The notes beneath the pieces are model-generated. The model was not told where the DNA came from. It did not search any database and was given only the letters and a program-made list of their open reading frames with translations. The position numbers and the translations under genes are program-made. Below, piece by piece: positions 317-37,263 of a stretch of DNA of 64,000 nucleotides (the stretch's first letter is position 1; the number at the start of each line of letters is the position of its first letter). Source of the stretch: an uncultured Planctomycetales bacterium (GTDB lineage: Bacteria > Omnitrophota > Gorgyraeia > Zapsychrales > JANLHA01); contig CAYJXI010000002.1 in the NCBI GenBank assembly GCA_964374105.1, positions 57,730 to 121,729 of the forward strand, written 5' to 3'.

Positions 317-1183
317 ATGTCAGCTATTACCAAACGTTATGATTTTGTTTTGTTCTTTGATGTCCAGGATGGTAATCCCAATGGCGATCCCGATGCCGGC
401 AATCTTCCGCGTGTAGATGCCGAAACAGGCATGGGGCTAGTGACGGATGTCTGTTTGAAGCGCAAGGTGCGGAATTATGTCCAGATAATTAAGGAATCAA
501 AAAAGCCATTCGACATATTTGTTAAGGAAAAAGCTGTGCTTAATTCGTTGATTGACGAAGCTCATGAACAACAAAATGTGAAGAATAAGGAGAAAGGTGA
601 TAAGACTGAAGCTGCCCGTCAATGGATGTGTGTGCAATACTATGACATTCGGGCGTTTGGCGCTGTTATGAGCACAGGGAAAAATGCTGGCCAGGTCCGA
701 GGGCCAATTCAGTTGACCTTTGCCCGGTCCGTAGAACCCATTGTTACTCTTGAGCATAGTATCACGCGTATGGCTGTAGCCACGGAAGCAGAAGCGGAAA
801 AACAAAGTGGTGATAACCGGACCATGGGTCGCAAGTTTACTGTTCCTTACGGTCTTTACCGTACTCACGGCTTTGTGTCCGCGCATCTGGCAGCACAAAC
901 AGGTTTTTCTGAAGAAGATTTGGAGTTGTTCTGGGAATCTTTGCAAAGGATGTTTGATCATGATCATTCTGCGGCGCGCGGCCTTATGAGCCCCCGGGCG
1001 TTAATTATTTTCGAGCATGGTTCAGCGCTGGGAACAGCAAACGCGTCGACCCTTTTTGATCGGGTTACATTCAAGCGCTCTAGCGAAGGCCCAGCACGCA
1101 AGTTTTCTGACTATCAGATTTTGCTTGATGGTCAAGCAGTAACAGAAATGCCTAAAATAGTGAACAGTAACAGAAATGCCTAA
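317..1183 (+). CDS. cas7: Type I-C Cas7 (Csd2/DevR family) Cascade backbone subunit
   Basis: The N-terminal motif [19 protein letters not shown] is the hallmark of Csd2/Csh2/DevR Cas7. The gene is 288 aa and followed by cas4-cas1-cas2 and I-C-type repeats. Its 3' end is modified by a 28-bp tandem duplication. Confidence 0.85.
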
Positions 1184-1250
1184 AATAGTGAAAGTGTAAG
1201 TATTTGTTTATCCCCCCAACCCTACCCCACAGCAAAAGGAGGAGTTAGAA

Positions 1251-2078
1251 ATGGGGAATAAAAATCAGATAGTAGAATTTCAGGCTCAGAAAATCCGGAG
1301 GTTTTGGGACGAACAACAAGAGAAGTGGTATTTTTCGGTCATTGATGTGATACAGGCGCTGACTGATAGTACAATCCCGCGCCGTTATTGGTCAGATCTT
1401 AAACGCAAGCTGACAGCAGAGGGAAGTCAGGTGTACGAGAAAATCGTACAACTGAAATTTGTATCAAGTGATGGGAAAAAGTACCTCAGCGGTGCCGCCG
1501 ATACGGAAACCATGTTCCGGATTATCCAGTCCGTCCCTTCCCCCAAAGCGGAGCCTTTCAAATTATGGCTAGCTCGTGTCGGATACGAACGGGTTGAGGA
1601 GGCCGCTGATCCCGAATTGGCCGTTCAAAGAGCCATGCAGTATTATTTGAAGAAAGGTTATTCGGAAGAGTGGATTAACCAGCGCTTAAAAAGTATCGAG
1701 ATTCGAAAATTTTTAACGGATGAATGGCGTAAAAGGGGCGTTAAAGGGAGTGATGAATTCGCGATTCTGACCGATGATATTACGTTTGCTTGGGCAGGGA
1801 TGAAAACCAAAGATTATAAAAAATTCAAGGAACTTAAGAAAGAAAATCTTCGGGATAATATGACCAATCTGGAGCTTATCCTTAACATGCTTGCCGAAGC
1901 GACTACGACTGAAATTTCACAAGTGAAAAAACCGGAAACTTTTAAGGATAACCGAAAGGTCGCGCGTCAAGGCGGCGGGGTGGCTGGCAAAGCGCGCAAG
2001 GACATTGAACAAAAAACAGGAAGAAGCGTTATCAGTCAAGAAACTCATCTTAAAATACTGAAGGGAAGAAAACGATGA
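1251..2078 (+). CDS. DinD-like / Bro-N domain protein (phage antirepressor-like N-terminal domain)
   Basis: The N-terminal 110 aa (QKIRRFWDEQQEKWYFSVIDVIQALTDS...YWSDLKRKL...) resemble the Bro-N fold of E. coli DNA-damage-inducible protein D. There is a strong SD (aaaggagg) 8 nt upstream. The gene sits between cas7 and cas4. Confidence 0.65.
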   Translation: MGNKNQIVEFQAQKIRRFWDEQQEKWYFSVIDVIQALTDSTIPRRYWSDLKRKLTAEGSQVYEKIVQLKFVSSDGKKYLSGAADTETMFRIIQSVPSPKAEPFKLWLARVGYERVEEAADPELAVQRAMQYYLKKGYSEEWINQRLKSIEIRKFLTDEWRKRGVKGSDEFAILTDDITFAWAGMKTKDYKKFKELKKENLRDNMTNLELILNMLAEATTTEISQVKKPETFKDNRKVARQGGGVAGKARKDIEQKTGRSVISQETHLKILKGRKR

Positions 2079-2229
2079 CTACCGCTAACTAAAGTTTTCC
2101 ACGTGCGTGGGGATGCATTGTGCGCGTAGGATTAATGTACAATATTTTGGAGCGAATTGAGCTGGACACATTAGCAGGTATTTTAATTATTCCCCCTCAA
2201 CCTACCCCACAACAAAGGAGAAGTCAGAA

Positions 2230-3336
2230 ATGGGGACACAGCATCGAAATGACCCGGCTCGTAATAAAGAGAAGCCGAGTGCGGCAAAAAAAGATTTAAT
2301 TCCAAAGGAATCAAAATTTATCCTCTATGCCAGCCCGGATGGGCAAGTTAAAGTGGAAGTCTTTCTTCAGGGGGAAACGGTTTGGCTGTCTCAGCAGTTA
2401 ATGGCGGAACTGTTTCAGACAACCAAGCAGAACATAAGTTTACATATTAAGAATATCTTTGAGGAAAATGAGCTGGTCGAAAATTCAGTTGTCAAGGAAT
2501 TCTTGACAACTGCCGCCGACGGGAAAAGTTATCAAACGAAGTTTTACAACCTTGATATGATTATATCCGTTGGATACCGTATCAAGTCCAACGTTGCCAC
2601 GCAATTCCGTATCTGGGCGACGCGTGTATTGCGCGAATATATTGTTAAGGGGTTTGCTCTTGACGATGATCGCCTTAAAAGCGGTAAATCTTTACGGCAG
2701 AAATATTTTGAAGAACTTTTGGAGCGCATCCGTGATATCCGCGCTTCGGAGCGTTTGTTCTATCAGAAAATCACTGATATTTACGCTCAATGCAGCATTG
2801 ATTATGATCCTAATTCATCCGTTACTGAGAAATTTTATGCGGTCGTCCAGAATAAACTGCATTGGGCTATTCATGGGCATACAGCCGCTGAATTGATTGC
2901 CAAGCGAGCCAATGCCTCAAAGCCGTATATGGGGTTGACCACATGGACTAATGCCCTCAGGGGGAAAATTCGTAAGATGGATGTATCGGTTGCGAAAAAT
3001 TATCTGGCGGAAAAGGAACTCCGGCAGTTGAACCGTATCGTGACAATGTATTTGGACTATGCGGAAATGCAGGCAGAAAACAAAAAGGCAATGACCATGA
3101 AGGATTGGGTGGCGAAGCTGGATTCTTTTTTAAGATTTAATGAAAAAGAAATACTCTCTAATCCGGGCAAAATATCATCTGAAGTTGCAAAAGAATTAGC
3201 CGAAAAGGAATTTGCGAAATACGAAAATCAAATTAGAACGTTTGAGGCCTCACAGCCCTCAACTGATTTCGATAAGCTTGTCAACCAAACTGAACAATTG
3301 AAAAGAAAAAGAATCAAACGGAATAAAGGACTATGA
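2230..3336 (+). CDS. RhuM-family protein (virulence protein RhuM family)
   Basis: The central region ETVWLSQQLMAELFQTTKQNISLHIKNIFEENEL...YNLDMIISVGYRIKSNVATQFRIWATRVLREYIVKGFALDDDRL is highly characteristic of RhuM-family proteins. The stop codon overlaps the cas4 ATG (ATGA). Confidence 0.75.
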   Translation: MGTQHRNDPARNKEKPSAAKKDLIPKESKFILYASPDGQVKVEVFLQGETVWLSQQLMAELFQTTKQNISLHIKNIFEENELVENSVVKEFLTTAADGKSYQTKFYNLDMIISVGYRIKSNVATQFRIWATRVLREYIVKGFALDDDRLKSGKSLRQKYFEELLERIRDIRASERLFYQKITDIYAQCSIDYDPNSSVTEKFYAVVQNKLHWAIHGHTAAELIAKRANASKPYMGLTTWTNALRGKIRKMDVSVAKNYLAEKELRQLNRIVTMYLDYAEMQAENKKAMTMKDWVAKLDSFLRFNEKEILSNPGKISSEVAKELAEKEFAKYENQIRTFEASQPSTDFDKLVNQTEQLKRKRIKRNKGL

Positions 3337-4001
3337 ACGAGACTGTGATATACAGTGAAGACAATCTTTTACCCCTATCCGCCATCCAGCACCTGTTTTT
3401 TTGCGAACGCCAGTGCGCGCTCATTCATATCGAACAGTTGTGGGATGAGAATTTGTTCACAGCGCAAGGGAGAATTATGCATGAGAAGGTGCATTCCGAG
3501 ACAGCCGAACGCCGGCGGGATATCCGGGTGGAGTATGGGATGCCGCTAAGATCGCTTAAACTGGGACTCTCCGGCAAAGCGGATGTGGTTGAGTTTCACC
3601 GTCTTGATGGCGGCCATTGGCCCCGCCAAGGACGGGGCTGGCAGCCTTTTCCGGTAGAGTTCAAACGAGGTCGACAAAAGCCCGACAACCGGGATAAAGT
3701 GCAGTTATGCGCTCAGGCGATTTGTCTGGAGGAGATGATGTCGCTTTCCGTCCCGCGAGGCGCGATTTATTATGGTAAAGAGCGGCATCGGACCGAGGTT
3801 GAATTTGACGAGTCTCTGCGGCAAGACACAGAGCAGACAGCGGCGCGGCTGCGCAAACTTATTGAATCGGGCAAAACTCCGCCGCCGGTTTATGAAGAGA
3901 AGTGTGATAGTTGTTCTTTGTTTTCTTTGTGTTTGCCTAAAACTATTGAGAAAAAAATATCGGTGCTGCAGTATCTTTCCCAAATGATCGAGGAATTATG
4001 A
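3333..4001 (+). CDS. cas4: Cas4 RecB-like nuclease with C-terminal Cys cluster
   Basis: The N-terminal LSAIQHLFFCERQCAL and the C-terminal CDSCSLFSLC four-Cys cluster are Cas4 hallmarks. The gene lies between cas7 and cas1, and its stop overlaps the cas1 start. Confidence 0.85.
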   Translation: MNETVIYSEDNLLPLSAIQHLFFCERQCALIHIEQLWDENLFTAQGRIMHEKVHSETAERRRDIRVEYGMPLRSLKLGLSGKADVVEFHRLDGGHWPRQGRGWQPFPVEFKRGRQKPDNRDKVQLCAQAICLEEMMSLSVPRGAIYYGKERHRTEVEFDESLRQDTEQTAARLRKLIESGKTPPPVYEEKCDSCSLFSLCLPKTIEKKISVLQYLSQMIEEL

Positions 4002-5029
4002 AAAAATATTTGAACACTATTTTTGTGACGACCCAGGGGGCATATCTTTTTAAGGAAGGCGAGACGGTCGCGGTTAAAGTGGAAGATGAAGTGAAGATGC
4101 GTGTTCCTGTCCATACAATCGGTGGAATTGTGTGCTTCGGTCAGGTGAGCTGTTCGCCGCCTTTGATGGGATTTTGCGCGGAGAATAATGTGGCGGTCAG
4201 CTTTTTGACGGAAAACGGATATTTTTTAGCGAAGGTGCAGGGATACATTTCAGGGAATGTATTGCTCAGGCGCGAGCAATACAGGCGGGCGGATGACTCA
4301 AAAAGTTCAACGACCATCGCCAAGTCCATATTAATGTCAAAATTTGCTAATTGCCGGACGGTTTTACAGCGGGCCCGGCGCGATCATGCTGATAAAATAG
4401 ATGATGAAGGGTTAAAAAAAGTTTCCGCCCGGTTGAGTTGGTCTTTGAAAGAATTGGAGCGGGACATGAGCTTGGATGCCTTGCGCGGATTGGAAGGCGA
4501 CACGGCGCATTCGTATTTCAGCGCCTTTGATCATTTGATCGTAAATCAGAAAGAGGACTTTTTTTTCCGCGAACGAAGTCGGCGTCCGCCGCTGGATAAT
4601 GTGAATTGTTTATTGTCATTTTTATATACTCTCCTTATGCACGACGTTCGTTCGGCTTTGGAAAGTGTAGGGTTGGATTCGGCGGTCGGATTTTTGCATA
4701 GGGACAGATCGGGCCGGCCGGGACTGGCGTTAGATTTGATGGAAGAATTCCGCCCATTTTTGGCCGACCGGCTGGCGTTGTCTTTGGTCAACTTGGGGCA
4801 GGTTAAAAAAAATGGTTTTAAGAAAAGTGAAGCGGGAGCGGTTTTGATGGATGATGAAACGAGAAAAACTGTTTTAATCGCCTATCAAAACAGGAAACAG
4901 GAAGAGATCACCCATCCGTTTCTTGATGAAAAAATTAACGTCGGTTTATTGTTTCATGTCCAGGCGTTGTTGTTGGCGCGGTATCTGCGCGGCGATTTGG
5001 ATGGTTATCCCGCGTTTATCTGGAAATAA
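3998..5029 (+). CDS. cas1: Cas1 integrase, type I-C
   Basis: 343 aa. It has the typical Cas1 N-terminus (LNTIFVTTQGAYLFKEGETVAV) and conserved acidic/His residues (HRDRSGRPGLALDLMEEFRP). It is followed by cas2. Confidence 0.9.
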   Translation: MKKYLNTIFVTTQGAYLFKEGETVAVKVEDEVKMRVPVHTIGGIVCFGQVSCSPPLMGFCAENNVAVSFLTENGYFLAKVQGYISGNVLLRREQYRRADDSKSSTTIAKSILMSKFANCRTVLQRARRDHADKIDDEGLKKVSARLSWSLKELERDMSLDALRGLEGDTAHSYFSAFDHLIVNQKEDFFFRERSRRPPLDNVNCLLSFLYTLLMHDVRSALESVGLDSAVGFLHRDRSGRPGLALDLMEEFRPFLADRLALSLVNLGQVKKNGFKKSEAGAVLMDDETRKTVLIAYQNRKQEEITHPFLDEKINVGLLFHVQALLLARYLRGDLDGYPAFIWK

Positions 5030-5043
5030 GAGGGAGGCATAAA

Positions 5044-5334
5044 ATGTTTGTCCTTGTTTCTTATGACGTGGCAGTGAGTGAGGAGGGCGGATCGCGACGC
5101 CTGAGGAGAGTGGCCAAGGCTTGTCAGGATTGGGGGCAGCGCGTTCAGTTTTCTGTTTTTGAGTGTATTGTGGATCCGGCTCAATGGACGGTGTTAAAAG
5201 ACAGATTGATAAGCGAGATGGATCAAGCAAAAGACAGCCTGAGGTTTTATTTTTTAGGTTCCAATTGGAAGCGGCGAGTAGAGCACATAGGAGTCAATAA
5301 ATCTTTGGACCAAGAAGGACCATTAATTGTGTAA
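5044..5334 (+). CDS. cas2: Cas2 endoribonuclease
   Basis: 96 aa. MFVLVSYDV...RVQFSVFEC is the Cas2 signature. It lies directly upstream of the leader and repeat array. Confidence 0.85.
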   Translation: MFVLVSYDVAVSEEGGSRRLRRVAKACQDWGQRVQFSVFECIVDPAQWTVLKDRLISEMDQAKDSLRFYFLGSNWKRRVEHIGVNKSLDQEGPLIV

Positions 5335-5517
5335 ACAGTTTTGCGAAGCGGTCAGAGACATATTGTATACAGAAGGTTCGCAGGATGTTTAAAGGCTTGA
5401 AATGTATATTCTTAAGTGAAGTGTTTGATTGTATAGAAAAAATTTTTAAGTTGTTTAAGGTTGGTTCGTGGAAACGTTGAAATAAAGTGTTGATAATTGA
5501 ATAGTTGTAAGAAGTCA

Positions 5518-5615
5518 GTCGCGCCCCGTGCGGGCGCGTGGATTGAAACTTTATAGATACTAATTTTTTCCGGGATCAACGGCGTCGCGCCCCGTGCGGG
5601 CGCGTGGATTGCCCC
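5518..5615 (+). CRISPR. Minimal type I-C CRISPR array: two repeats and one 34-nt spacer
   Basis: Repeat 1 (5518-5549) reads GTCGCGCCCCGTGCGGGCGCGTGGATTGAAAC, which is close to the canonical I-C repeat GTCGCGCCCCGCACGGGCGCGTGGATTGAAAC. The spacer at 5550-5583 reads tttatagatactaattttttccgggatcaacggc. Repeat 2 (5584-5615) is identical for 28 nt and then degenerates (…gattgcccc), as a terminal repeat often does. An AT-rich 183-bp leader lies between the cas2 stop and repeat 1. Confidence 0.8.
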
Positions 5616-6603: not shown

Positions 6604-7170
6604 ATGGCAAAAACGCTTAAGCAAGCCCTGCCTGCCCGGCAGGCAGGCCTGCCTGCCGGCAGGCAGGTTGCGATTTTAGTGGAAGATTTATATCAGGTTT
6701 TGGAGGTGTGGTATCCCCTTTTACGACTTAAGGAAGAAGGCATTGCAGTCAAGACGATCGGGACCGGAACAAAAGAAACCTATAGCAGCAAAGAAGGATA
6801 TCCGATCAAGGTGGATTCAGGCATTCAGGATGTGGATGTCAAAGATTTCGATGGTGTCATTATTCCCGGGGGATATGCCCCGGATATCCTGCGCCGTTAT
6901 GAAAGGGTCGTCAATTTTATTAAACGTCTTTATATTGATGGCCGGGTGGTAGCAGCGATTTGCCATGGGGGATGGTTGTTGGTTTCTGCTGGGATCGCCA
7001 AAGGACATAAGCTTACGTGTTTTTTTGCTATCAAGGACGACTTGATCGCTGCGGGTGGGAAATATATCGATCGCGAAGTCGTTGTTGATAAAAATTTAAT
7101 TACCTCTCGTAAACCCGAAGACTTACCTCGATTTGTTCAAGAAATCATTAAACTCATCAAAAAAGGTTAA
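6604..7170 (+). CDS. DJ-1/PfpI family protein (class I glutamine amidotransferase-like)
   Basis: VAILVED...GVIIPGGYAP...AAICHGGWLL contains the nucleophile-elbow Cys typical of DJ-1/PfpI. The first ~20 codons are encoded by two tandem palindromes, so the true start is uncertain. Confidence 0.7.
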   Translation: MAKTLKQALPARQAGLPAGRQVAILVEDLYQVLEVWYPLLRLKEEGIAVKTIGTGTKETYSSKEGYPIKVDSGIQDVDVKDFDGVIIPGGYAPDILRRYERVVNFIKRLYIDGRVVAAICHGGWLLVSAGIAKGHKLTCFFAIKDDLIAAGGKYIDREVVVDKNLITSRKPEDLPRFVQEIIKLIKKG

Positions 7171-7252
7171 TCTTTGTATCAAGGATACTTCCAACGATCC
7201 TGGAGATTTTTAGCAACGACCTTTCCTTTTTAAATCTTAAAGAATTAGAGCG

Positions 7253-8809
7253 ATGATTAAAGTTAAACGAGCCCTCATCAGTGTTTCCGATAAAAATGGT
7301 CTTTTAGATTTTGCGAAAGGGCTTAATCAATTGGGAATTGAAATCATTTCCACCGGAGGGACAGCTAAAGTCCTTAAGGCGAGTGATATTCCGGTCAAAG
7401 AGGTTTCGGATTATACGGGTTTCCCGGAGATCTTGGATGGGCGGATCAAAACGCTTCATCCCGCCATCCATGGCGGGTTGTTGGCCTTGCGCGAAAAAGA
7501 AGAACATATCAGCCAGCTGAAAAAGTTTAATATGGGATTGATCGATATGGTGGTGGTCAATCTTTATCCCTTCCCCCGTTTTATTCAGAAAAAAAATGTA
7601 ACCTTAGAGGAGGCCCTGGAAAATATTGATATTGGAGGGCCCGCCGTGGTTCGTTCTGCTGCCAAAAATTTTAAAAGTGTCGCCGTAATTTGCAATCCCC
7701 TCCGTTATAAAGAAATCCTCAAAGAATTGGATTTGAATCAAGGCCTTTTATCCGATACGGTTTTGATGAATCTAGCGGTCGAGGCCTTTCAACATACGGC
7801 GGACTATGACCGAATCATCTATGATTTTCTTAAAAATAGGGATAAGGATCACGGACTCACTCGGATGCCCTCCGAGTTAAATTTACGATTTCATAAATTG
7901 CAAGATCTTCGTTATGGTGAAAATCCCCACCAAACGGCCGCGTTTTATCAAGATGAAGGACAGGCAAAAGGGTTGGCGAAATTAAAACAACTGCATGGGA
8001 AAGAGATGTCATTCAATAATTTATTGGATCTCAATTCTGCCGTTGAAATCCTTAAGGATTTTGCTTTGCCGACAGCCGTCATCATTAAACACAACAATCC
8101 GACCGGAGTTGCTTGTGCCTCTAGCTTAGGGAAGGCATTTCAAGAGGCTTATCAATGTGATTCCCTTTCTGCATTTGGCGGAATCATTGGTTTAAATAAA
8201 AAGGTTGATTTCAAAACGGCCCAGGCCATCCAAAAAAGTGGTTTCATGGAATGCGTTATTGCCCCGGCTTATGATAAAAACGCCTTTTTCCTTCTTTCCC
8301 AAAAGAAAAATCTAAGAATGATCCAGCTGGATACAAACGATTGGAATCGACAAGAATTTGATTTTAAAAAGATCCTCGGCGGGTTATTATTTCAGGATGA
8401 CGATAACAAAAATATTGATTCTAAGGAATGGCAAATCGCTACCCAAAGGAAGCCCACCCAATCCCAAAGGGAATCAATGTTATTCGGCTGGAAGATCATC
8501 AAACACATCCGATCCAATGCCGTGATTTTGGTCAAGGGGACAAGGACAATTGGCATTGGATGCGGCCAGACCTCTCGAATTGAAAGTATTGTCTTAGCTA
8601 TCAAAAAAGCAGGTCAACAGGCTAGGGATTCGATTTTGATTTCTGAAGCCTTTTTTCCTAAAACCGATAATGTCAAAGTTGCCGCCAGAGCCGGCATTCG
8701 GGCGATCATTCAATCAGGCGGATCCATCGCTGATCAAGATGTGATCAAAGAAGCCAATAGGGCTAAGATGGTCATGGTATTGACCGGAGTTCGGCATTTT
8801 AAACATTAA
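7253..8809 (+). CDS. purH: Bifunctional AICAR transformylase / IMP cyclohydrolase PurH
   Basis: 518 aa. The N-terminal MGS-like IMPCH domain (RALISVSDKNGL...ISTGGTAK...DGRIKTLHP) and the C-terminal AICARFT domain are recognisable. Confidence 0.9.
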   Translation: MIKVKRALISVSDKNGLLDFAKGLNQLGIEIISTGGTAKVLKASDIPVKEVSDYTGFPEILDGRIKTLHPAIHGGLLALREKEEHISQLKKFNMGLIDMVVVNLYPFPRFIQKKNVTLEEALENIDIGGPAVVRSAAKNFKSVAVICNPLRYKEILKELDLNQGLLSDTVLMNLAVEAFQHTADYDRIIYDFLKNRDKDHGLTRMPSELNLRFHKLQDLRYGENPHQTAAFYQDEGQAKGLAKLKQLHGKEMSFNNLLDLNSAVEILKDFALPTAVIIKHNNPTGVACASSLGKAFQEAYQCDSLSAFGGIIGLNKKVDFKTAQAIQKSGFMECVIAPAYDKNAFFLLSQKKNLRMIQLDTNDWNRQEFDFKKILGGLLFQDDDNKNIDSKEWQIATQRKPTQSQRESMLFGWKIIKHIRSNAVILVKGTRTIGIGCGQTSRIESIVLAIKKAGQQARDSILISEAFFPKTDNVKVAARAGIRAIIQSGGSIADQDVIKEANRAKMVMVLTGVRHFKH

Positions 8810-9031
8810 AACAATGTGCGACTTTTAATCAGTTCGGTTGTGAGGGTGAGTGGTGGGTGAGGCGTCGGGTTTTTGGGGTTAGGTTGCCTGAAGGTCAGTA
8901 CCCAAAATCTATAACACATCCGTATCCTTTTTAAAAGAGTGCACCTGACGTTTAACAGGAGGCCCTTTGGTCTTGATGCCTGGGTGATCAACCAATCAAA
9001 ATCCCAAACGTTACCCTTCCTTAAATAAACT

Positions 9032-10615
9032 ATGACACCTCAAGAAGCCAAAGAATATCTTGATTCGTTCATTAATTATGAGGTTCATCTTGGCTTAGGA
9101 GATCCGTCCCAGTTTAAGTTGAGCCGAGTGGAATATCTTTTGGAACTCTTAGGAGGACCTCATAAAAAGTTAAAGTTTATTCATATCGCGGGGACAAAGG
9201 GAAAGGGATCCACCTGTGCCTTTGCGGCCAATATATTAAAATATTCCGGCTACCGGGTTGGACTTTACACCTCCCCGCATTTTTGTGATCTCAACGAGCG
9301 AATAAGAATCCTTTCGTTGACCCATTCGACCCCGCCATGGCGGGGTTCAGGGGCAACCCTGAGTCCTTCGACAAGCTCATCCCGCCCGTTGGCGGGACGA
9401 GCGAAGTCGAGGGGCCAAGCCCCAACATACCTGGGGGGGATAGTCGAACACCTTCAACTTCGCTCAGTGCTCAACCCTGCCCGCCCCGCAAAGCGTAAGC
9501 GGGCCGGGGAGTATAATCGAAGGGCCGAAGGGTTGACCGACCCTTTAAAGAAGCACGACTTTATTTTTGAGGATTGTATTTCGGATCAAGAATTGTGTTC
9601 TTTGATTGAAAAAACCCAACCTTATTTAGAAAAGGCCAGATTGACGACAAAGTATGGACGATTGAGTTATTTTGAGGTCTTGACCGTTTTAGCCTTGTAT
9701 TATTTTTTTAAACAAAATGTCGATGTCGTTGTCTTGGAAACCGGTTTGGGAGGTCGACTCGATGCCACCAATGTCGTTGATTCTTTAGTTTGCGGAATAA
9801 CACCCATCAGCCTTGAACATACCCAACAACTCGGTAACACCCTGGATAAGATTGCTCAAGAGAAAGCAGGGATCCTAAAAGATCCAAATCAGCTGGCCGT
9901 TATCGCACTGCAGCCTTTGGAAGTGTATGAGGTGATTAAAAAAAGATGTGAGGATTTAGGGATTAGGTTTTACACAGTCGGAAAGGATATTCTTTTTCAT
10001 TCTCTTACTCAAGAAGAGTCGCAACAACGGTTTGAAATTAAGGCAGGCAAATCTCTCTATCGATTATCAACTTCCTTGGTAGGAAGACACCAGGTTGTTA
10101 ATGCGGCCACTGCGGTGGGTTTAATTGAGGCCGGTAAAGATTTCGGATTCCAGATAAACGAGGAAAATATTTCTGATGGCATTGCGCAATGCTTTTGGCC
10201 GGGACGTTTTGAGATCATTCAAAAATACCCTTGGGTCATCCTAGATTGTGCGCATAATCCTAGTTCCTGTTTAAAGTTGAAAGAAACAGTTTTAGAATTA
10301 TTTCCTCAGAAGAAAATCCTTTTGATTTTAGGGGTTTCGCAGGATAAGGATATTTTGGGGATTTGTCAAAATCTTCAAAGTATAGCCGCGAGGGTTATTA
10401 CTACCAAAGCCAATCATCCGCGGGCCTTTGATTTCACCCAAAAGAACAGCAAAGATTTATTCCCGGGATGTCAGACGACTATGACCGAAAGTGTTAAGGA
10501 GGCGGTATCGTTAGCTTTTAAAAAGGTGGATCCAGAAGATGTCATCTTAATCACCGGATCGATTTTTGCTGTGGGAGAAGCCAGAGCCTTATTAATTCCC
10601 TCACTCGTCATTTAA
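9032..10615 (+). CDS. folC: Folylpolyglutamate synthase / dihydrofolate synthase FolC, carrying a ~70-aa in-frame insertion
   Basis: FIHIAGTKGKGST (P-loop) and the Mur-ligase family motifs are present. The 527-aa length exceeds the typical ~420-440 aa. The excess is a GC-rich palindromic repeat element at 9320-9545. Confidence 0.8.
   Translation: MTPQEAKEYLDSFINYEVHLGLGDPSQFKLSRVEYLLELLGGPHKKLKFIHIAGTKGKGSTCAFAANILKYSGYRVGLYTSPHFCDLNERIRILSLTHSTPPWRGSGATLSPSTSSSRPLAGRAKSRGQAPTYLGGIVEHLQLRSVLNPARPAKRKRAGEYNRRAEGLTDPLKKHDFIFEDCISDQELCSLIEKTQPYLEKARLTTKYGRLSYFEVLTVLALYYFFKQNVDVVVLETGLGGRLDATNVVDSLVCGITPISLEHTQQLGNTLDKIAQEKAGILKDPNQLAVIALQPLEVYEVIKKRCEDLGIRFYTVGKDILFHSLTQEESQQRFEIKAGKSLYRLSTSLVGRHQVVNAATAVGLIEAGKDFGFQINEENISDGIAQCFWPGRFEIIQKYPWVILDCAHNPSSCLKLKETVLELFPQKKILLILGVSQDKDILGICQNLQSIAARVITTKANHPRAFDFTQKNSKDLFPGCQTTMTESVKEAVSLAFKKVDPEDVILITGSIFAVGEARALLIPSLVI
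9320..9545. repeat. GC-rich compound palindromic element (REP/MITE-like) inserted in-frame in folC
   Basis: It contains accccgccatggcggggt and tcccgcccgttggcgggacga, the same sub-palindromes seen in other copies at 28.8 kb, 46.9 kb and 51.5 kb. Local GC is far above the flanking folC sequence. Confidence 0.6.
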
Positions 10616-10755
10616 GAAACTCTGATTTTATTAGAAGTGGTTTCAAAACCTCTTTATTCCCCCGCCTTAGGGGGAGAATAAAGAAGAAGCTGTTGAGGAG
10701 ATATCCAATTTAGAGGTTATGAAATCAGTTCTAGTTCAAGGGGACGCAAGGAAGA

Positions 10756-12165
10756 ATGTATCAGTATAAAGGTCTTGAGGACACCATCGTTGCCATTTGC
10801 ACACCTTTCGGGCAGGGAGGAATTGGTATTGTCCGTTTAAGCGGGCAGGAAGCCGTCAAGATTGCGGATAAGATGTTTCTTTCAAAAAATAAAAAAAGGC
10901 CCTCCCAATTTAAAAATTTCATGGTGCATTACGGTTACGTCGTTTCTAAAAATGGAATAAATTTAAAAGGGCAAATCATTGATGAGGCACTTCTGACCGT
11001 GATGCGGGCTCCCAGAAGTTATACCAAAGAAAATATTGTAGAAATCAGCTGTCACGGAGGAGTTATGCCTTTAAGGTGCATATTGAATTTGAGCATAGAT
11101 TATGGGGCGCGCTTAGCAGAACCAGGAGAATTTACCAAAAGGGCTTTTTTGAATGGACGGATTGACTTAACCCAGGCCGAGGCGGTTTTGGATATTGTTC
11201 AAGCCAAGACAGAAGCGTTCATGCGAGTTTCTACCCATCAACTCAAAGGAGAGCTGACACTCGAACTAGAGGTTATTCGAGAAGGACTGATGAATATTTA
11301 TACAAAATTGGAGGCCTTTGTGAATTTTCCAGAGGATACAATCGGGGCCGAAGGGAAAAATGAAATTGTCAAACAAATAATTTACCTTGAAGAAAAAGTT
11401 AGTCAATTGTTGAGAACCAGCGAACAGGGAAGGATTTTGAAGGAAGGGATAAAGATTGTTCTCTGCGGTAGTCCCAATGTGGGAAAATCTTCTCTGCTTA
11501 ATTGTTTGCTAAAGCAACCTCGGGCTATTGTGAGTCCTATCCCGGGGACAACCCGAGATACCATCGAGGAAAGTGCGCAAATCAAAGGAATCCCTTTTCA
11601 GCTGGTGGATACCGCCGGTATCCTAGAGCCTCGGGATTTGATCGAACAAGAGGCTATCCACCGGAGCCGTTTGTATATTCAACAGGCGGATTTGATTTTA
11701 TTGATAGTGGATGGAGGCCAAAAAATTTCACAACAGGAGGAAAAATTAATTTCCCTGATTAAGGATCAGAATGTGCTGATTGTTATCAATAAATGTGATT
11801 TGCCAATTCAGTTAAGGGAGGATGAGATCCAAAGAATTCTTCCCAACCACAAAACGATTTTCGTTTCTGCTCTTAAGAAGATTGGAATCGATCAACTGGA
11901 GGAAGGTATTGTTGAAAATGTTTTAAAAGGGCAAGGCATTGATTCTCAAGGGATTCTCATTAGCAATGTCCGTCATATTCAATCCTTGAAAAATTGTATT
12001 AAAGCCATCCATCGCAGCAAAGAGATTTTAATTCAGGGTGTATCGTTGGAATTTGTTTCCGAAGAAATCAAAACCGCGATTAATGATTTGGATAGCATTA
12101 CGGGAAGGAATATCGATGCGGATTTGTTAGACCGGATTTTTTCGCAGTTCTGCATTGGCAAATGA
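10756..12165 (+). CDS. mnmE: tRNA modification GTPase MnmE (TrmE)
   Basis: 469 aa. The G-domain motifs GSPNVGKSSLLN and DTAG are present, together with the C-terminal CIGK motif. Confidence 0.9.
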   Translation: MYQYKGLEDTIVAICTPFGQGGIGIVRLSGQEAVKIADKMFLSKNKKRPSQFKNFMVHYGYVVSKNGINLKGQIIDEALLTVMRAPRSYTKENIVEISCHGGVMPLRCILNLSIDYGARLAEPGEFTKRAFLNGRIDLTQAEAVLDIVQAKTEAFMRVSTHQLKGELTLELEVIREGLMNIYTKLEAFVNFPEDTIGAEGKNEIVKQIIYLEEKVSQLLRTSEQGRILKEGIKIVLCGSPNVGKSSLLNCLLKQPRAIVSPIPGTTRDTIEESAQIKGIPFQLVDTAGILEPRDLIEQEAIHRSRLYIQQADLILLIVDGGQKISQQEEKLISLIKDQNVLIVINKCDLPIQLREDEIQRILPNHKTIFVSALKKIGIDQLEEGIVENVLKGQGIDSQGILISNVRHIQSLKNCIKAIHRSKEILIQGVSLEFVSEEIKTAINDLDSITGRNIDADLLDRIFSQFCIGK

Positions 12166-12190
12166 TTCAATGGAGTCTTTTGAAATTTAT

Positions 12191-13015
12191 TTAAGGATTG
12201 GCATCGGGATAGACATCAGATTGGTCGGTCTCGGAAGATGAGTCAAGATCTTCAAATTCTGTATCCTCCTCATCTTTGGAATCTGGGGGAGCCGATTTTA
12301 TTTTCTCCTGATAAACCTTTTCTGCAATCAGAGAGATTTTTTTCATCAACTCCTCATCGCGAAGAATAGCCAGAAATTTAGGATGGAAAATTAATTCTGA
12401 GTAGTTTTCCTCTTCTATCAGTTCTTGGACCTCTTCATCTTCAGCGAGTTCCTGAATTTTTTCATCAGATATAAAGTTTTGATACTCGGGCGTTTTGGCT
12501 ATTTTTTTTAATTGATCGGGATTCTTTAAAATTAAAAGAGAATCAAAAATATTTTTAGCCAACGGAGTTTGCTTGATCACGGATTCCGTAAACCAACCCC
12601 AGGTTAAAGATTGTTCGATATTTTTTTGCAGGCGCTCTAAGTCCCATAATTGCGGGGGTAGAAGGCTGATGAAAAAAATAACAATCATTGTCAGCCCACC
12701 TTTCCAGAGGAGACTTAAAAGACCACCCAAAAGGCGGCTGGCCCAAAACACGTAATGCCGAAAATTTTTATCGACTGTTCTGCGGCTTAAAAAGAATAGC
12801 AGGGTCAAAAGGATCGAAAGAACAATGGTCCCTCCAGACGTGACAAAAATAGCAGTTATAAGATTATTTGTCACATCATAATATAAAATTCCTACGATTA
12901 AAAAGACGAAAAAAGAAAAAGGCCCAATCAGAGCATATAAAAGGCCATTCCCCCAACCAATCAAAAAACACACTGCCCAAAAGACTAAAAGGAAATAGTC
13001 TAGGGACGTATACAA
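12191..13015 (-). CDS. CvpA-like polytopic membrane protein with an acidic C-terminal extension
   Basis: There are four predicted N-terminal TM helices with a CvpA-like pattern. The C-terminus is glutamate/aspartate-rich. Confidence 0.35.
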   Translation of the reverse strand: MYTSLDYFLLVFWAVCFLIGWGNGLLYALIGPFSFFVFLIVGILYYDVTNNLITAIFVTSGGTIVLSILLTLLFFLSRRTVDKNFRHYVFWASRLLGGLLSLLWKGGLTMIVIFFISLLPPQLWDLERLQKNIEQSLTWGWFTESVIKQTPLAKNIFDSLLILKNPDQLKKIAKTPEYQNFISDEKIQELAEDEEVQELIEEENYSELIFHPKFLAILRDEELMKKISLIAEKVYQEKIKSAPPDSKDEEDTEFEDLDSSSETDQSDVYPDANP

Positions 13016-13106
13016 GAGTTTCTCCTTTTTGAAATTAGTATAACTTAACTGATCATGTTACGAGAGCTTTTTTAGAATTTTTTTCCAGGGATGTGAATGG
13101 ATAGCT

Positions 13107-14825
13107 TTAAGGCCTTTTTGTATCAAACCATGCTTGGTGTAATTTTTTCGCATCGAGGATATAAACATAGGTATTTCTTTTATTCTGGTTAAAGATTTGA
13201 TTAAGGATAAGATCCCGGTACGTACAAACCTCTTCTTCCTGTGTCCAGATTTTACTGGAAGCCAAGGTTGGAAAATAAGCAACGGTAAACTTTTCTAGAT
13301 TTTGGGATAAATAAAGTTCGGTCAAAAAAGGATCACGCATAAAGTCATCTTCGGCACAGTCCAACCAGATAGATCGACCGGTGATCGGGGGAATGAGGAT
13401 GTAACCTTCTGGGACCTGTAAGACGGTCCTCATACCCTCAAATTGAACCTCGTGTTTTCTTTTAGGATTGTTGAGGACAGAAACAGTAAAAGGGTTGTTG
13501 GGGTGATGGATGTAAACCCAAAGCTTCTGAACATTATTTTTAGCAAGCCAGGTGTCAATTTTAGCCGTTGCCATCCGCGTTGGGAAAACATCGAAGAGAA
13601 AAATTCTTAAATTGAAGATGAGATGAGATAAGACTAAAAGGACAATAGTTACCCTCAAGATGTTTTTAAATCTTCTGCTAGGATTAGTAAAAAATCTATG
13701 CTTAATTTCCTGAAAGATAAAACAAACCAAAAAGATGATCCCCATGAACCACGAATAATAATTGCGGCCAAATTGAGACACTTGGGTGATTTCCACTGCC
13801 AGCGGAGTTGAGAGGCTGATCAGGATGAGAAAAAAGAGCGAACGTTGTTTTAGAGAAAGTTTGAATAAGTATAAGATGCTTAATAAATATACGGAAAACA
13901 ATAAAGGCATGATGAGAAAAAAATATTTAATAATCCAAATCCAACCGGCCCCACGAAAGGAAATAGGTTCGGGGAGATTATAGGCATAAGGATAAGGTAA
14001 GTATTTTACAAGATAATCATGGTAAGCCTCGAAATGATTGACATGTTGGCTGGTGAATAGAAAATCAATAAAATTTATCACGCTTTTGAGCGGATCGGGG
14101 AAGGTAAAAAGCAAGATAATGCCTAAACATCCGATAAGAAATAACAAGGCTCTTGTCATGAATGTTTTTATATGTGTTTTACTCAACGAAATTTTAAAAG
14201 GATCGAGAAAATAAACAAAAAGAAAGTAAGGGAGAAAGAGAGTCGCGGTGGGAGAAGAGAAAAGCATAAACCCAAAACAAATGCCGGCTACCAGCGAAGG
14301 AATTGATTTGTCTTGAGATTTAAGCAAGAAAAAAACGGTAAATAAGAAGAACATCATCACCCAAGGTTGATGGGCTCCCTGAAGGACATACTGGTATGAC
14401 CAAAACGATGTGGCAAAAATAAAAAAGGCGATCAGGCCAATATGGTGATCAAAAAGTTTTTTGATGATGAGGTAGATGAGAATCGAAGAGACCTGGACAG
14501 CTAGAATCAAAAGGAGAATGTTGGGATATAAGGTCTCGTTGTCTTTAAGGATTTTTTGCATAATGGCAATACCCAGGATCATGGATTCTTTGCCGTGCAT
14601 ACTAATCCGGCCCAATGTGCCCGGGGCAGGGACATTATGCATTTCTGAAAAGTAAGGCAGTTCGAAAAGTTTAGCAGCTGTCGGAATATAAGCAAAGTAG
14701 GAGTCGGTTGGCCAAAAGTTGATGTAAACGGTCGATAGGGCAAGACCTAAGGAAATGAAGGTCGTAAGCATGATAACCAAAACTAAATAGATGGACTTAA
14801 TGTTTTTTGTGATGGGAAGAGCCAT
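13107..14825 (-). CDS. Polytopic membrane protein, GT-C/PMT/ArnT-like candidate glycosyltransferase (paralog A)
   Basis: 572 aa with at least 10 TM helices, followed by a soluble ~150-aa C-terminal domain. It is a paralog of the adjacent gene. Conserved blocks include YINFWP.DSY..YIPTA and ILIPPITG. Confidence 0.4.
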   Translation of the reverse strand: MALPITKNIKSIYLVLVIMLTTFISLGLALSTVYINFWPTDSYFAYIPTAAKLFELPYFSEMHNVPAPGTLGRISMHGKESMILGIAIMQKILKDNETLYPNILLLILAVQVSSILIYLIIKKLFDHHIGLIAFFIFATSFWSYQYVLQGAHQPWVMMFFLFTVFFLLKSQDKSIPSLVAGICFGFMLFSSPTATLFLPYFLFVYFLDPFKISLSKTHIKTFMTRALLFLIGCLGIILLFTFPDPLKSVINFIDFLFTSQHVNHFEAYHDYLVKYLPYPYAYNLPEPISFRGAGWIWIIKYFFLIMPLLFSVYLLSILYLFKLSLKQRSLFFLILISLSTPLAVEITQVSQFGRNYYSWFMGIIFLVCFIFQEIKHRFFTNPSRRFKNILRVTIVLLVLSHLIFNLRIFLFDVFPTRMATAKIDTWLAKNNVQKLWVYIHHPNNPFTVSVLNNPKRKHEVQFEGMRTVLQVPEGYILIPPITGRSIWLDCAEDDFMRDPFLTELYLSQNLEKFTVAYFPTLASSKIWTQEEEVCTYRDLILNQIFNQNKRNTYVYILDAKKLHQAWFDTKRP

Positions 14826-14852
14826 GGTTAATCGTTCTGATCTAATAAGATT

Positions 14853-16586
14853 TTACCGGATGGGTAATATTTTAGGAAATTGAGCAAACCATTCTTTTTG
14901 GAGTTTACTAGCATCCAGGATGTAGACATATCCCTTTTTTCTGTCTTTTTCATCAATGCCCTTGATAATTAAGTCGAGATAAGTACAGATCTCTTCCTCT
15001 TGAACCCATATTTTACTTGTGGCCATCGTTTTAAAGGAAGCCGCAACATACTTTTTAAAATCTGAGGAATGATATAATTCGGTTAAATAGGGATCTAAAG
15101 TAAAATCCGTGTAACGGCATTCTTTAAAAATCGTTTTCCCAGTGATAGGAGGAATTAAAATATAACCCTCTTGGGCTTGTCGGATATTATCCATGCCATA
15201 AAATTTTATTTCCTCTTTTTGTTTGGGATTATTGAGAAACTGGACGAAATTGAGATTAAGGGGGTGGTTAAAATAAACATAAATTCTTTTGATATTTCGT
15301 TCCCTGAGCCAGTGATGAATTCGGGTGGTGGCTAATCGGGTAGGAAAAACATCGGTTGAAAAAATATAAAGGTTAAAGATAAGATGCAATAAGAAGAGGC
15401 CGATTAGCGAACCTAGAAATTTCAATTTGACTTTTTTGTTGGTCAAGTTTTTCTCAAAATGGTATGCGGCCAGGCAAATAAGAAAGATGAGCCCTACGAT
15501 CCAGGAGAAATAATTTCTCCCGAATTGGGCTACCCCAACCCACTCGGCCAGTAAAGGGGTGGAAAGGCTAATCAAACACAGATACAGCAGTTGGATTTTC
15601 TGCAACGAAGTTTTTATCAAATACAGTAAACTCACAATATACCAAGGAAACATAATAGGCATGATCAAGAAAAAATATTTGAATATCCATACAAATCCCT
15701 CGCCCCGCAGGCTCTCAGGGAGGGGAAAATAACGGGAGAGATAACTTTGATAAATAACAAAATTATTCCCTGACTGACTGGCACGGATGAATAGAGAATA
15801 ATCTTTAATGTTTTTGATACAATGCGGGAAGGTAAAAAGTAAAAAAATACCTAAGACCCCTAACCCAAAGATTAAACATTGATGGTAGGGGAAGGAGTGA
15901 ATTTTTGTAGCCGAAGAATTTTCGTTCATAATCTTCCATAAGTAGAAACCAAGAAAGTAAGGAAAGTAAAGGGGAGCCGTTGGTGAGGAGAATAACATAA
16001 ATCCAAAGAAGATGCCTGACAGAAGATACGAAAAATTTGATTCTTTAAAGCAGAACAAAAAGAAAACCGTAAAAAGAAAATTCAAAAGCACCAAAGGTTG
16101 GTGGGCTCCTTGCAAACAGTACATATATGGCCCAAAGCAAGTCATAAATAAAAGACTCGCCAAAATCCCTATCTCTCTACCGAAGAATTTAGAAAAGATT
16201 GTATAAAATAAGATGGACGATATGCCGATGGAAATAATCAAAAGAAACACATTGGGATATAAACTCTGAAAATCATTCAGTATTCGTTGCATGACGGCAA
16301 TTCCTAAAATCAGGGCTTCCTTGCCATGCATGGTAATCTTGATTAAGCCATCGATGGGTAGATCATGCATTTCGGAAAGAAAAGGTTTTTCAAAGAGACG
16401 TCTTGCGGTTGGAATATAAGGTGTATAGGAATCTGAGGGCCAAAAGTTAATGTAGTAGGTTGACAAGGATAAGAGAAATATGATTGTTAAGGAGAAGACA
16501 AGGATAAACAAAAAATAGAATCTTTGTCTTTGGATGAAGAATAAATCACGCAAAGATTGAGAGAATTTCCTTAGAGAATTGTTCAT
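14853..16586 (-). CDS. Polytopic membrane protein, GT-C/PMT/ArnT-like candidate glycosyltransferase (paralog B)
   Basis: 577 aa with the same architecture and conserved blocks as 13107-14825. Confidence 0.4.
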   Translation of the reverse strand: MNNSLRKFSQSLRDLFFIQRQRFYFLFILVFSLTIIFLLSLSTYYINFWPSDSYTPYIPTARRLFEKPFLSEMHDLPIDGLIKITMHGKEALILGIAVMQRILNDFQSLYPNVFLLIISIGISSILFYTIFSKFFGREIGILASLLFMTCFGPYMYCLQGAHQPLVLLNFLFTVFFLFCFKESNFSYLLSGIFFGFMLFSSPTAPLYFPYFLGFYLWKIMNENSSATKIHSFPYHQCLIFGLGVLGIFLLFTFPHCIKNIKDYSLFIRASQSGNNFVIYQSYLSRYFPLPESLRGEGFVWIFKYFFLIMPIMFPWYIVSLLYLIKTSLQKIQLLYLCLISLSTPLLAEWVGVAQFGRNYFSWIVGLIFLICLAAYHFEKNLTNKKVKLKFLGSLIGLFLLHLIFNLYIFSTDVFPTRLATTRIHHWLRERNIKRIYVYFNHPLNLNFVQFLNNPKQKEEIKFYGMDNIRQAQEGYILIPPITGKTIFKECRYTDFTLDPYLTELYHSSDFKKYVAASFKTMATSKIWVQEEEICTYLDLIIKGIDEKDRKKGYVYILDASKLQKEWFAQFPKILPIR

Positions 16587-16714
16587 GATTGTTTAAAACT
16601 TATTTCACATTTAGGGTTATATAACTAATGGTACTTATTTAAAGGAAAAACTAGAATAGAGATCGTAAGCTATTTTAATAAAATTTCTTTAGATGGTATA
16701 AGGATTATTTAAAA

Positions 16715-17026
16715 TTATTTGGAACGATGCACAGCCGAAGAAGAGCTTTGCGGGGCCTGCGATTCTTCAAGACTGGATTTGGATTGAGGAGAGGTCAAAA
16801 TGACATAACAGATATAAGGGATGAAGAAGATCCCAGCAAGGAAGACGACAAAGACGGGAGCAAGAAGGATATATTTGACAGGTGTGGGGAGTTTTAACTT
16901 CCCTTTCTTGGCCTTTTTGGCTTGGAGGGTTTCATATTCCGCCAGGCTCATTTGCTGAAACCCTCGTTCTTTGTATTTTTTTGATAGGTCTTCTTTATTA
17001 TCAGTCGTCATACTTAAATTTATCAA
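16715..17026 (-). CDS. Small single-pass membrane protein, hypothetical
   Basis: 103 aa with a Lys-rich N-terminus and one TM helix. Codon usage fits the local genome. Confidence 0.3.
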   Translation of the reverse strand: MINLSMTTDNKEDLSKKYKERGFQQMSLAEYETLQAKKAKKGKLKLPTPVKYILLAPVFVVFLAGIFFIPYICYVILTSPQSKSSLEESQAPQSSSSAVHRSK

Positions 17027-17205
17027 GTTTTCTTTTTGCCAGAAAGAAGTATAACAGGTAAAATCGATGAAATCAATGGGTGAAGAAATTTTTTAAATGA
17101 TCGTTTTCCCTTTTAATGATTGATGAAGAGAATTTTTTTGGAAAACCTATTGATAATTTCGCGAGTCGTAATAAAATGAAATTAGAGTTAAAAACATTAG
17201 AAGCT

Positions 17206-17332
17206 GTTTCATAACCTTCCTTTGTCATTCCCGAATGCCTTAATCGGAAATCCAAAGGAGAATTTTCCTCGGGCTGGATTCCTGCTTTCGCAGGAATGAC
17301 ATCGGAGACAGGTGATTTAGGGGTTATGAAAC
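17206..17332. mobile_element. MITE-like element: an 11-bp terminal inverted repeat flanking a REP palindrome
   Basis: The TIRs are gtttcataacc and ggttatgaaac. The inner palindrome reads gtcattcccgaatgccttaatcgg...ctgctttcgcaggaatgac. The minus-strand ORF 17073..17357 runs through it and is probably spurious. Confidence 0.5.
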
Positions 17333-17360
17333 CAGTTCTAATAAAATAGGATTTCAATTT

Positions 17361-28606: not shown

Positions 28607-28711
28607 TAGTTTTCAAAAAAGTAATTCATTATAAATACTCTTCTGTAACTCTCCTGTAAATCTCGGGACACGCGTTCACTTAAGAACGGTGTCCTTTTTT
28701 ATTTTACCCCG

Positions 28712-28830
28712 ATGCCAGAAAGCCATTCATCCATACCCGTAACGGACATGGCTTTCTGGGTCGGGGTTCCGACCCCCGAAGGGGCGTCGGAACCCCGAAA
28801 GAAGAGATGTCACCCCGCCATGGCGGGGTG
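28712..28830. repeat. REP/MITE-like GC-rich palindromic element
   Basis: The flanking inverted repeat is ccagaaagccat / atggctttctgg. Inner palindromes ggggttccgacccc, gtcggaaccccg and accccgccatggcggggt are shared with the folC insert. Confidence 0.5.
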
Positions 28831-29038
28831 GAGCTTCACAAGTTGCATGGGGGGGATTGATGCATAAAATCAAAATTCTTCAAATCATATTTTTCATCGG
28901 TGGCTTAAGATTGATAAAGAGAACGCCTGAAACACGAGAATATATATGAATTTATTTACTTTTTTCTTGTATTGCCTTTGATACTTTGTTATATTCATTA
29001 CGTTATATTTTATTTTTAAAATAAATAAAAGGGGGGAT

Positions 29039-37189: not shown

Positions 37190-37263
37190 ATTTTCATATT
37201 GTCATACCTGTGTAAGCAGGTATCTAGAAGATTAATATTGGAGTGGATTCCCGCTTCGCGCGT

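Follow-up and report, generated by a model that had tools for sequence, protein, structure and literature searches.

The folC gene of the analyzed DNA stretch, 64,000 nt of contig CAYJXI010000002.1 from an uncultured Omnitrophota bacterium (the whole stretch is called the window below), contains an inserted block of hairpins rich in guanine and cytosine (GC), which adds 72 codons to the gene and leaves its reading frame open. The insertion has definite limits and the composition of non-coding DNA, the gene around it is intact, and the loop of the FolC enzyme that received it is permissive. We consider it rather probable that hairpin-rich DNA of a non-coding type entered this loop in frame and was tolerated there, similarly to the Rickettsia palindromic elements (RPEs). 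In this case, the block would be translated as a part of FolC, would be harmless to it, and would have arrived by transposition. The main features are listed in Table 1.

Table 1. Coordinates of folC, the insert with its hairpins and flanking repeats, and the intergenic three-hairpin element (positions in the window)
Feature	Position	Strand	Description
folC (folylpolyglutamate/dihydrofolate synthase)	9032..10615	+	527-aa open reading frame including the insert
Left direct-repeat copy GTTGACC	9316..9322	+	7 bp
Inserted block	9323..9538	+	216 nt, 72 codons, FolC residues 98-169; right-hand direct-repeat copy included
Hairpin 1	9329..9346	+	Perfect 18-nt palindrome, arms ACCCCGCCA and TGGCGGGGT
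Hairpin 2	9347..9362	+	TCAGGG-GCAA-CCCTGA; from the centroid structure
Hairpin 3	9363..9415	+	Long, 21 bp, core TCCCGCC-CGTT-GGCGGGA
Hairpin 4	9420..9436	+	CCCCA-N7-UGGGG; from the centroid structure
Hairpin 5	9443..9537	+	Long, imperfect, reaches the right junction; from the centroid structure and inverted repeats I6 and I7
Right direct-repeat copy GTTGACC	9532..9538	+	7 bp
Three-hairpin element	28701..28842	+	Intergenic, GC-rich, given for context; contains the 18-mer of hairpin 1

Limits, composition, and folding of the insert

The 120 best FolC homologues, including the query, were aligned by MAFFT; the other 119 are up to 53% identical to it. The segment between the TSPH and EKT motifs spans 116 aa in the query and 42-45 aa in 97 of the 119 other proteins (mode 44), an excess of 72 aa, and the 72-aa segment is found in none of the 119. 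An earlier note on this DNA, which had estimated the extra sequence at about 70 residues and proposed such an alignment with relatives, thus comes close to the actual length.

The two copies of the heptamer GTTGACC at the junctions are separated by exactly 216 nt, that is, by 72 codons, and no other 7-mer is common to both junction zones. When the junction zones are shuffled, they have some 7-mer in common with a probability of about 0.10, which falls to roughly 0.005, by our own estimate, if a frame-restoring spacing is required as well. This is suggestive of a target-site duplication. When positions 9323-9538 are removed in silico, a 455-aa FolC of normal length with the loop ERIRILSLTDPLKKHDFIFEDC (ERIRIL-SLTDPLKKHDF-IFEDC) is obtained. 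The ends of the insert read CATTCGACCCC...GGGCCGAAGG, and 8 of 11 terminal bases are complementary by manual count (CATTCGACCCC versus CCTTCGGCCCT).

By composition, the block is foreign DNA of a non-coding type. Its GC content is about 62% (0.61) compared to 41.4% for the whole window; in 100-nt segments it amounts to 0.59-0.65 across positions 9300-9549 versus 0.35-0.49 elsewhere in folC, and positions 9305-9561 (GC 0.59-0.69) form the longest island with GC of at least 60% in the window. The GC content of the block is flat over the three codon positions, 0.62, 0.67, and 0.62, whereas in the remaining part of folC it is 0.49, 0.35, and 0.41. The GC-rich nested palindromes read through by folC, which the earlier note had placed at 9320-9545, are thus real, with slightly tighter limits.

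The RNA of region 9300-9560 folds with an energy of -123.4 kcal/mol (z = -5.97 on the plus strand and -4.24 on the minus strand), and none of 200 shuffled sequences is as stable; the DNA of the loop folded alone yields z = -6.6. The centroid structure of this region consists of five directly adjacent hairpins. Tandem and inverted sub-repeats within the block are marginal (P about 0.06-0.19). A scan of positions 8800-10800 for promoters and terminators gave counts not above those in shuffled sequences and no candidates within the insert. No Rfam family matches the window at gathering thresholds, and the eight weak matches on positions 9150-9700 at E up to 10 (10.5-17.3 bits, E from 0.44 to 7.8) are far under the gathering scores, none of them being an intron or ribozyme family.

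The 72-aa peptide encoded by the insert, HSTPPWRGSGATLSPSTSSSRPLAGRAKSRGQAPTYLGGIVEHLQLRSVLNPARPAKRKRAGEYNRRAEGLT, is enriched in Arg, Ser, Gly, Ala, and Pro. Of the six frames, only the one that folC uses is free of stops, the numbers of stops being 0, 3, and 2 on the plus strand and 3, 1, and 1 on the minus strand. A given frame is open with a probability of about 0.23 in sequences of block-like composition, and one in three lengths is divisible by three, hence a random insertion of this kind would be non-disruptive in roughly 8% of cases (probability about 0.08). A search with all six frames of the insert against 5.8 billion clustered proteins returned only the query's own protein, and a full HMMER search with the peptide against 1.84 billion representative proteins found no relative. 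Judging from these comparisons, the insert contains no conserved domain, intein, known intron, ribozyme, or riboswitch.

Loss of the block on the way to the mature enzyme, through intron splicing, intein splicing, or ribosomal bypass, is extremely improbable. Such removal would agree with the compact and strongly structured RNA within a gene that is conserved, and a weak inverted repeat indeed flanks the block (9299-9312 with 9570-9583, 11 of 14 bases). However, excision at this repeat would take out 257 nt, a length not divisible by three; no group I or group II intron and no ribozyme is matched in Rfam; and the used frame alone being free of stops argues for translation. Mini-inteins are longer than about 130 aa, with Cys, Ser, or Thr at the N-terminal junction and, at the C-terminal one, His-Asn preceding Cys, Ser, or Thr, whereas the insert has 72 aa, starts with His (HSTPP), and ends in GLT (AEGLT) followed by Asp, lacking the intein junction residues.

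Condition of the host gene and of its assembly

The product of folC matches structures of FolC and folylpolyglutamate synthase (FPGS) in PDB with E values from 6e-57 to 3e-42 (1o5z, 1w78, and 1fgs at 6e-57 to 7e-47), its only Pfam domains are Mur_ligase_M and Mur_ligase_C, and its named homologues belong to Candidatus Omnitrophota genomes. In the HMMER alignment with 1o5z, the FolC of Thermotoga, residues 29-93 of the query correspond to 34-98 and residues 180-522 to 100-432, so the extra residues come after the strand ...ERIRI and before the next helix, past the P-loop and the SPH loop. The alignment to FolC and FPGS structures thus bears out the earlier placement of the insert just after the P-loop-containing N-terminal segment.

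The query keeps each of the 47 residues that are invariant in an alignment of 52 sequences, including G54, K58, G59, and S60 of the P-loop and S81-P82-H83, and the reading frame contains neither stops nor frameshifts. The gene order P-II/S21/DJ-1/purH/folC/mnmE is the same as in other Omnitrophota. An AlphaFold2 model based on the same 52-sequence alignment has a mean predicted local distance difference test score (pLDDT) of 86 and a predicted template modeling score (pTM) of 0.84, with 400 residues above pLDDT 90. Residues 99-174 form the single segment with pLDDT below 50 and have no secondary structure; they are located between the strand 91-94 and the helix 185-204. Foldseek aligns the model with crystal structures of FPGS and FolC at target-normalized TM scores of 0.87-0.93. 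Hence the structural check suggested in the earlier note was done, and the insert is predicted to be a disordered surface loop on an otherwise confident FolC fold.

It was also suggested in that note that this copy of folC is being pseudogenized. A young pseudogene, inactivated by the insertion, in which the open frame is a coincidence and decay has not yet begun, would agree with the not negligible chance of about 0.08 for an open frame of a length divisible by three, and a second folC could exist in the genome beyond the approximately 80 kb inspected. The 47 retained invariant residues, the absence of stops and frameshifts, the conserved position between purH and mnmE, and the confident fold of the model all speak against decay, as does the insertion into a loop that tolerates insertions of 12-80 aa in other full-length FolC proteins. 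We consider a pseudogene improbable; folC appears to have an in-frame and apparently tolerated insertion with no visible decay.

An assembly chimera, the other caveat of the earlier note, is made highly improbable by an independent assembly. The Logan contig L001 (run ERR3478686) is 100% identical to window positions 6639-17244 and crosses both junctions, so that two assemblies agree over 10.6 kb, and exact retention of the frame and of the normal loop length would be rare for a chimera. On the other side, the source is a metagenome-assembled genome, and the Logan contig L132 from run ERR4904390, corresponding to window positions 9594-12388 (mnmE and the 3' part of folC), starts 56 nt past the insert. 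The beginning of this contig neither confirms nor contradicts the insert: it could reflect either a drop of coverage at GC-rich hairpins or a presence/absence polymorphism breaking the assembly graph. The same organism is found at 100% identity in ERR4904390, ERR4904391, and GCA_947085705.1, where L132 is the sole contig extending into folC, and a public metagenome-assembled genome also encodes this FolC; beyond the source assembly, the junctions themselves are covered solely by the ERR3478686 contig. The search for an empty site by way of the identical PurH and MnmE neighbors retrieved only L001 and the ERR4904390 contig starting at 9594.

Hairpin repeats in the same loop and elsewhere

All internal insertions of at least 12 aa among the 120 homologues are located in the same loop, at different residues (P0001, P0010, P0041, P0066, P0067, and P0087). 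The differing positions speak against integration at a specific site, and by this comparison the FolC loop is a permissive site of variable length. The inserted sequences are diverse. In P0010 (L124 2523-2612), the additional 19 aa are encoded by a near-perfect, GC-enriched long hairpin (z = -5.1), and in P0087 the additional 43 aa are encoded by a copy of the three-hairpin element, which is intergenic in the window. The insert peptide of P0041 reads SLRGASFATKQS...DCFASLRCARND, and its KQS and DCF ends would be encoded by opposite strands of a single short inverted repeat (AAG CAA TCN and NGA TTG CTT) according to our own back-translation from the protein. The 80 extra residues of P0067 (L120 3283-3555) show no GC or structure signal. 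Finally, the loop insert of P0066 (L122 383-517) has a weak reverse-strand match, 11.3 bits, to the covariance model R1 described below.

The three-hairpin element is about 140 nt long, has the ends TACYCCGA...YTTCAC, and belongs to no Rfam family. Five copies with unrelated flanks were found in four sources: window 28701-28842, L121 3320-3458, L123 1360-1483 (minus strand), L134 1718-1856, and L133 695-881. The copies in the window and in L123 are intergenic. The window copy and positions 3321-3426 of L121, which encode the FolC loop of P0087, are 78.7% identical over 108 nt (E = 6e-16), compared to an identity of only about 66% between the flanking genes. In P0121, an in-frame copy is located between the BioD and BioA domains (residues 222-267). 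P0122 has a further in-frame copy at its N-terminus, and P0123, which comes from the same assembly as P0087, has one close to its N-terminus. In the alignment of the five copies, nine base pairs are preserved although both partners have changed. By these copies, the family behaves like a protein-colonizing repeat. A scan of IMG/VR with a pattern derived from it gave zero matches. In the L133 copy, a further 48-nt hairpin (CTCCGATGGAGTTCGACACTTCGTGTCGTTCTCATCGGAG...) is nested in the conserved middle hairpin, at about positions 763-811, suggesting that hairpin modules insert into one another.

A distant kinship of the folC insert with this family is possible. Their 5' ends are alike (ATTNNACCCCG; ATTCGACCCCG in the insert versus ATTTTACCCCG in the family), the 18-nt hairpin is common to both, the three-hairpin layout is similar, and the P0087 copy occupies the same FolC loop in frame. 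On the other hand, nothing in the family corresponds to the second half of the insert (9416-9537). The covariance model R1, built from the copies of the window, L121, and L123, scores true members at 76-152 bits; the match to the insert, at 9324-9410 on the plus strand, begins one base past the left GTTGACC and scores only 11.2 bits.

The compensatory changes in the three-hairpin family bear on the possibility that the block itself is functional, either as an mRNA structure affecting translation rate, stability, or localization, or as a basic disordered binding loop. The very stable fold, somewhat better on the sense strand (z = -5.97 compared to -4.24), and a peptide rich in Arg and Lys would be consistent with such a role. 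However, palindromic DNA repeats show paired changes without any RNA function too, the block has no Rfam family even at E up to 10 and no homologue on which conservation could show, and the peptide is unique and of low complexity; we regard a function of its own as quite improbable.

The insert and the rest of the window were compared by blastn-short. The 18-nt palindrome ACCCCGCCATGGCGGGGT of the insert is found identically at 28812-28829; TCCCGCCC-TTGGCGGGACG at 46963 (46963-46981) resembles the core of hairpin 3 with one indel; and CCCGCCTTGGCGGGG is found at 51542. The common pieces are only 15-20 nt long, and nothing longer was detected. Thus the recurrence of the sub-palindromes announced in the earlier note holds at 28.8, 46.9, and 51.5 kb and fails at 17.2 kb, where the element has no such motif, and the conclusion that the insert and the intergenic repeats are the same element is not supported: they share only short generic hairpins, and the R1 score is low. 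A similar stem at 37351-37402 was rejected as a chance match in ordinary coding sequence, a 271-aa minus-strand open reading frame that we take to be thiG from its sequence.

Besides the limited coverage of the junctions and of the genome mentioned above, several observations weigh against an RPE-like insertion. The shared hairpins are generic: units of the form CCCGCC-loop-GGCGGG (in the window at 9331, 9381, 28814, 46964, and 51542) are common in unrelated phyla too, and a scan of a genome collection with the 18-mer ACCCCGCCATGGCGGGGT retrieved at least 118 stretches, including those from Streptomyces, Pseudomonas, and Saccharibacteria; among the matches listed, none is labeled Omnitrophota, and the sequence shared with the insert never exceeds 28 nt. 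Searches for another copy of the block gave none in the 64-kb window or in 16 kb more of the genome, among metagenome contigs of JGI (600 matches to six back-translated peptide seeds, 0 confirmed), in IMG/VR with a 24-mer of the insert (zero matches), or in plasmid and phage collections with blastn. By these searches, the insert is an orphan in every source covered. Terminal inverted repeats are no better than in shuffled sequences (best terminal alignment, P = 0.81), and a 7-bp direct repeat can equally come from microhomology-mediated repair. The R1 match is marginal (E = 0.0044 when 1 kb was searched with the filters switched off), and in a 95-kb search with default filters the folC insert was not reported.

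Most of these observations would also agree with the block being filler DNA, such as a fragment of foreign or distant genomic origin captured at a break, during repair or template switching, by means of the GTTGACC microhomology, or with its palindromes having grown in place by replication slippage: the block is a singleton in all searches, its terminal inverted repeats are not significant, the heptamer fits microhomology as well as target duplication, and the internal sub-repeats are marginal (P about 0.06). However, no donor sequence was found, and five packed hairpins with z of about -6 are typical of repeats of the repetitive extragenic palindromic (REP) or miniature inverted-repeat transposable element (MITE) type. 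Further, palindromic elements that are demonstrably repeated occur in this FolC loop in other Omnitrophota, the 5' end of the insert resembles that of the three-hairpin family, and the R1 match starts one base past the left repeat. We assign filler DNA an appreciable, though clearly minor, probability.

We favor an RPE-like insertion, and its likely agent would be a small non-autonomous palindromic element of the MITE or REP kind, as with the Rickettsia elements, a captured DNA fragment being a less likely one. We suggest that 209 bp together with a 7-bp duplication, 216 bp in total, entered the codons of a solvent-exposed loop between the strand ...ERIRIL and the helix beginning ...IFEDCISDQEL. 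Since the block has a length divisible by three and is stop-free in its present phase and orientation, the gene would have stayed open. The ribosome would read through the block, and the 72 residues would form a floppy loop leaving the FolC fold and the catalytic residues untouched. Purifying selection would have kept only an in-frame, stop-free insertion in a permissive loop, and would have had no reason to purge this allele; the chance of about 0.08 for a non-disruptive insertion and the single open frame of six make such filtering plausible. As for the tolerated in-frame loop insertion of the earlier note, it agrees with the excision in silico, the relatives, the GC content by codon position, the model, and the Logan contig; the mobility of the element is another matter, and since no second copy was found, the term mobile element can be applied to the block only conditionally.

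There is also a small chance that Omnitrophota have an RPE-like system of their own, in which GC-rich, structured elements of several hairpins, with helices preserved by compensatory changes, would move between genomes and settle again and again in frame in permissive loops and linkers, the folC insert being a divergent or composite member and some modules perhaps being co-opted as RNA structures of the message or as basic disordered loops. This suggestion is based on the examples from FolC in at least three lineages and from the BioD-BioA junction.

Several other repeats were observed in the window. REP-like repeats GTCATTCC...CTGCTTTCGCAGGAATGAC, yielding peptides such as IPAFAGMT on translation, are located at 17215-17305, 46905-46990, 51515-51585, and 37200-37260, and a CCCGCC..GGCGGG hairpin is enclosed by two of them. 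The end of the Logan contig L001, at 17244, falls within one of these REP-like repeats, suggesting that they are multi-copy in the sample; its start, at 6639, falls within a dense palindromic run CCTGCCTGCCCGGCAGGCAGGCCTGCCTGCCGGCAGGCAGG (6627-6667) just upstream of the DJ-1/PfpI gene. Given these two contig ends, and the contig starting 56 nt past the insert, such repeats may break metagenome assemblies. Another dispersed repeat may be represented by a 36-nt inverted repeat with 83% complementarity, whose arms are located at 10618-10653, just past the folC stop, and at 17319-17354, next to the REP-like element at 17.2 kb. A perfect palindrome with an 8-bp stem, CCCGCCATCCATGGCGGG at 7460-7477, encodes PAIHGG within TLHPAIHGGLL, which we take to be a conserved stretch of PurH; its presence indicates that chance alone can produce hairpins of this type within coding sequences.

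Finally, a type I-C CRISPR-Cas locus occupies window positions 317-5611, with L128 1-5860 upstream of them. The order of genes is cas3, cas5d, csd1, and cas7, then cas4, cas1, and cas2, the names of the last three being presumed from the sequence. Between cas7 and cas4, there are two genes other than cas genes (1251-2078 and 2230-3336), with Bro-N and RhuM domains. The array has two repeats only, GTCGCGCCCCGTGCGGGCGCGTGGATTG at 5518 and 5584, and an rve integrase gene (L128) is located just upstream of the locus, whose GC content is above that of the rest of the window.

Comparison with known systems

Rickettsia palindromic elements are about 150 bp long and occur in frame in many unrelated genes, where compatibility with the fold and function of the host protein is predicted (PMC10969869). 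The families RPE-1 to RPE-10 (Ogata et al. 2000, 2002, as summarized in PMC10969869) have many copies per genome and a conserved peptide per family. Like these elements, the folC block is palindromic, in frame, and free of stops, and is located at a fold-compatible site of a housekeeping gene that is otherwise intact. Unlike them, it has a length of 209-216 bp, lacks a second copy, and comes from another phylum, and it is set beside RPEs by description; the multi-copy character of RPE-like repeats is not observed, since neither another protein with the peptide nor a DNA copy in the approximately 80 kb was found.

Among bacterial MITEs, intragenic copies preserving the reading frame are known for ERIC, Correia/NEMIS, Nezha, and QMITE1 (PMC10969869). 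The folC block resembles them in being small and strongly structured, without coding capacity of its own, and flanked by a short (7-bp) direct repeat; it differs in the lack of significant terminal inverted repeats, and neither a parent insertion sequence nor a family of copies was found.

REP sequences are extragenic by definition and have tens to hundreds of copies, the REPINs being mobilized by RAYT (Y1) transposases, and they move without target duplication. The resemblance of the block to REPs and bacterial interspersed mosaic elements (BIMEs) consists in short GC-rich imperfect palindromes arranged head to tail, and CCCGCC..GGCGGG also recurs in the intergenic repeats of the window, whereas the location inside folC sets the block apart, as would the 7-bp direct repeat at the junctions if it is a target duplication. 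The GC clusters and byps of yeast mitochondria are GC-rich mobile palindromes invading coding sequences in an AT-rich genome, the byps being 27-55 nt long and skipped by the ribosome. The folC block similarly consists of GC-rich palindromes in a coding sequence of a GC-poorer genome, but in contrast to byps it has an open frame, and read-through is expected.

In a literature search for Omnitrophota and palindromic repeats, no paper on such repeats was seen by title or abstract. In-frame invasion of essential enzymes by selfish palindromic DNA is documented mainly in Rickettsia, and it is one of the routes to new protein loops; here the same outcome is observed in an uncultured, free-living phylum. 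The loop of FolC, having taken unrelated insertions several times, is a natural permissive site, useful, for instance, in the engineering of FolC or FPGS. Such inserts inflate gene lengths and can be mistaken for lineage-specific domains or pseudogenes. The main interest of the case is in the repeated use of one FolC loop and in the RPE-like three-hairpin family nearby, and the folC insert itself is a modest extension of a phenomenon known from Rickettsia, with no new mechanism.

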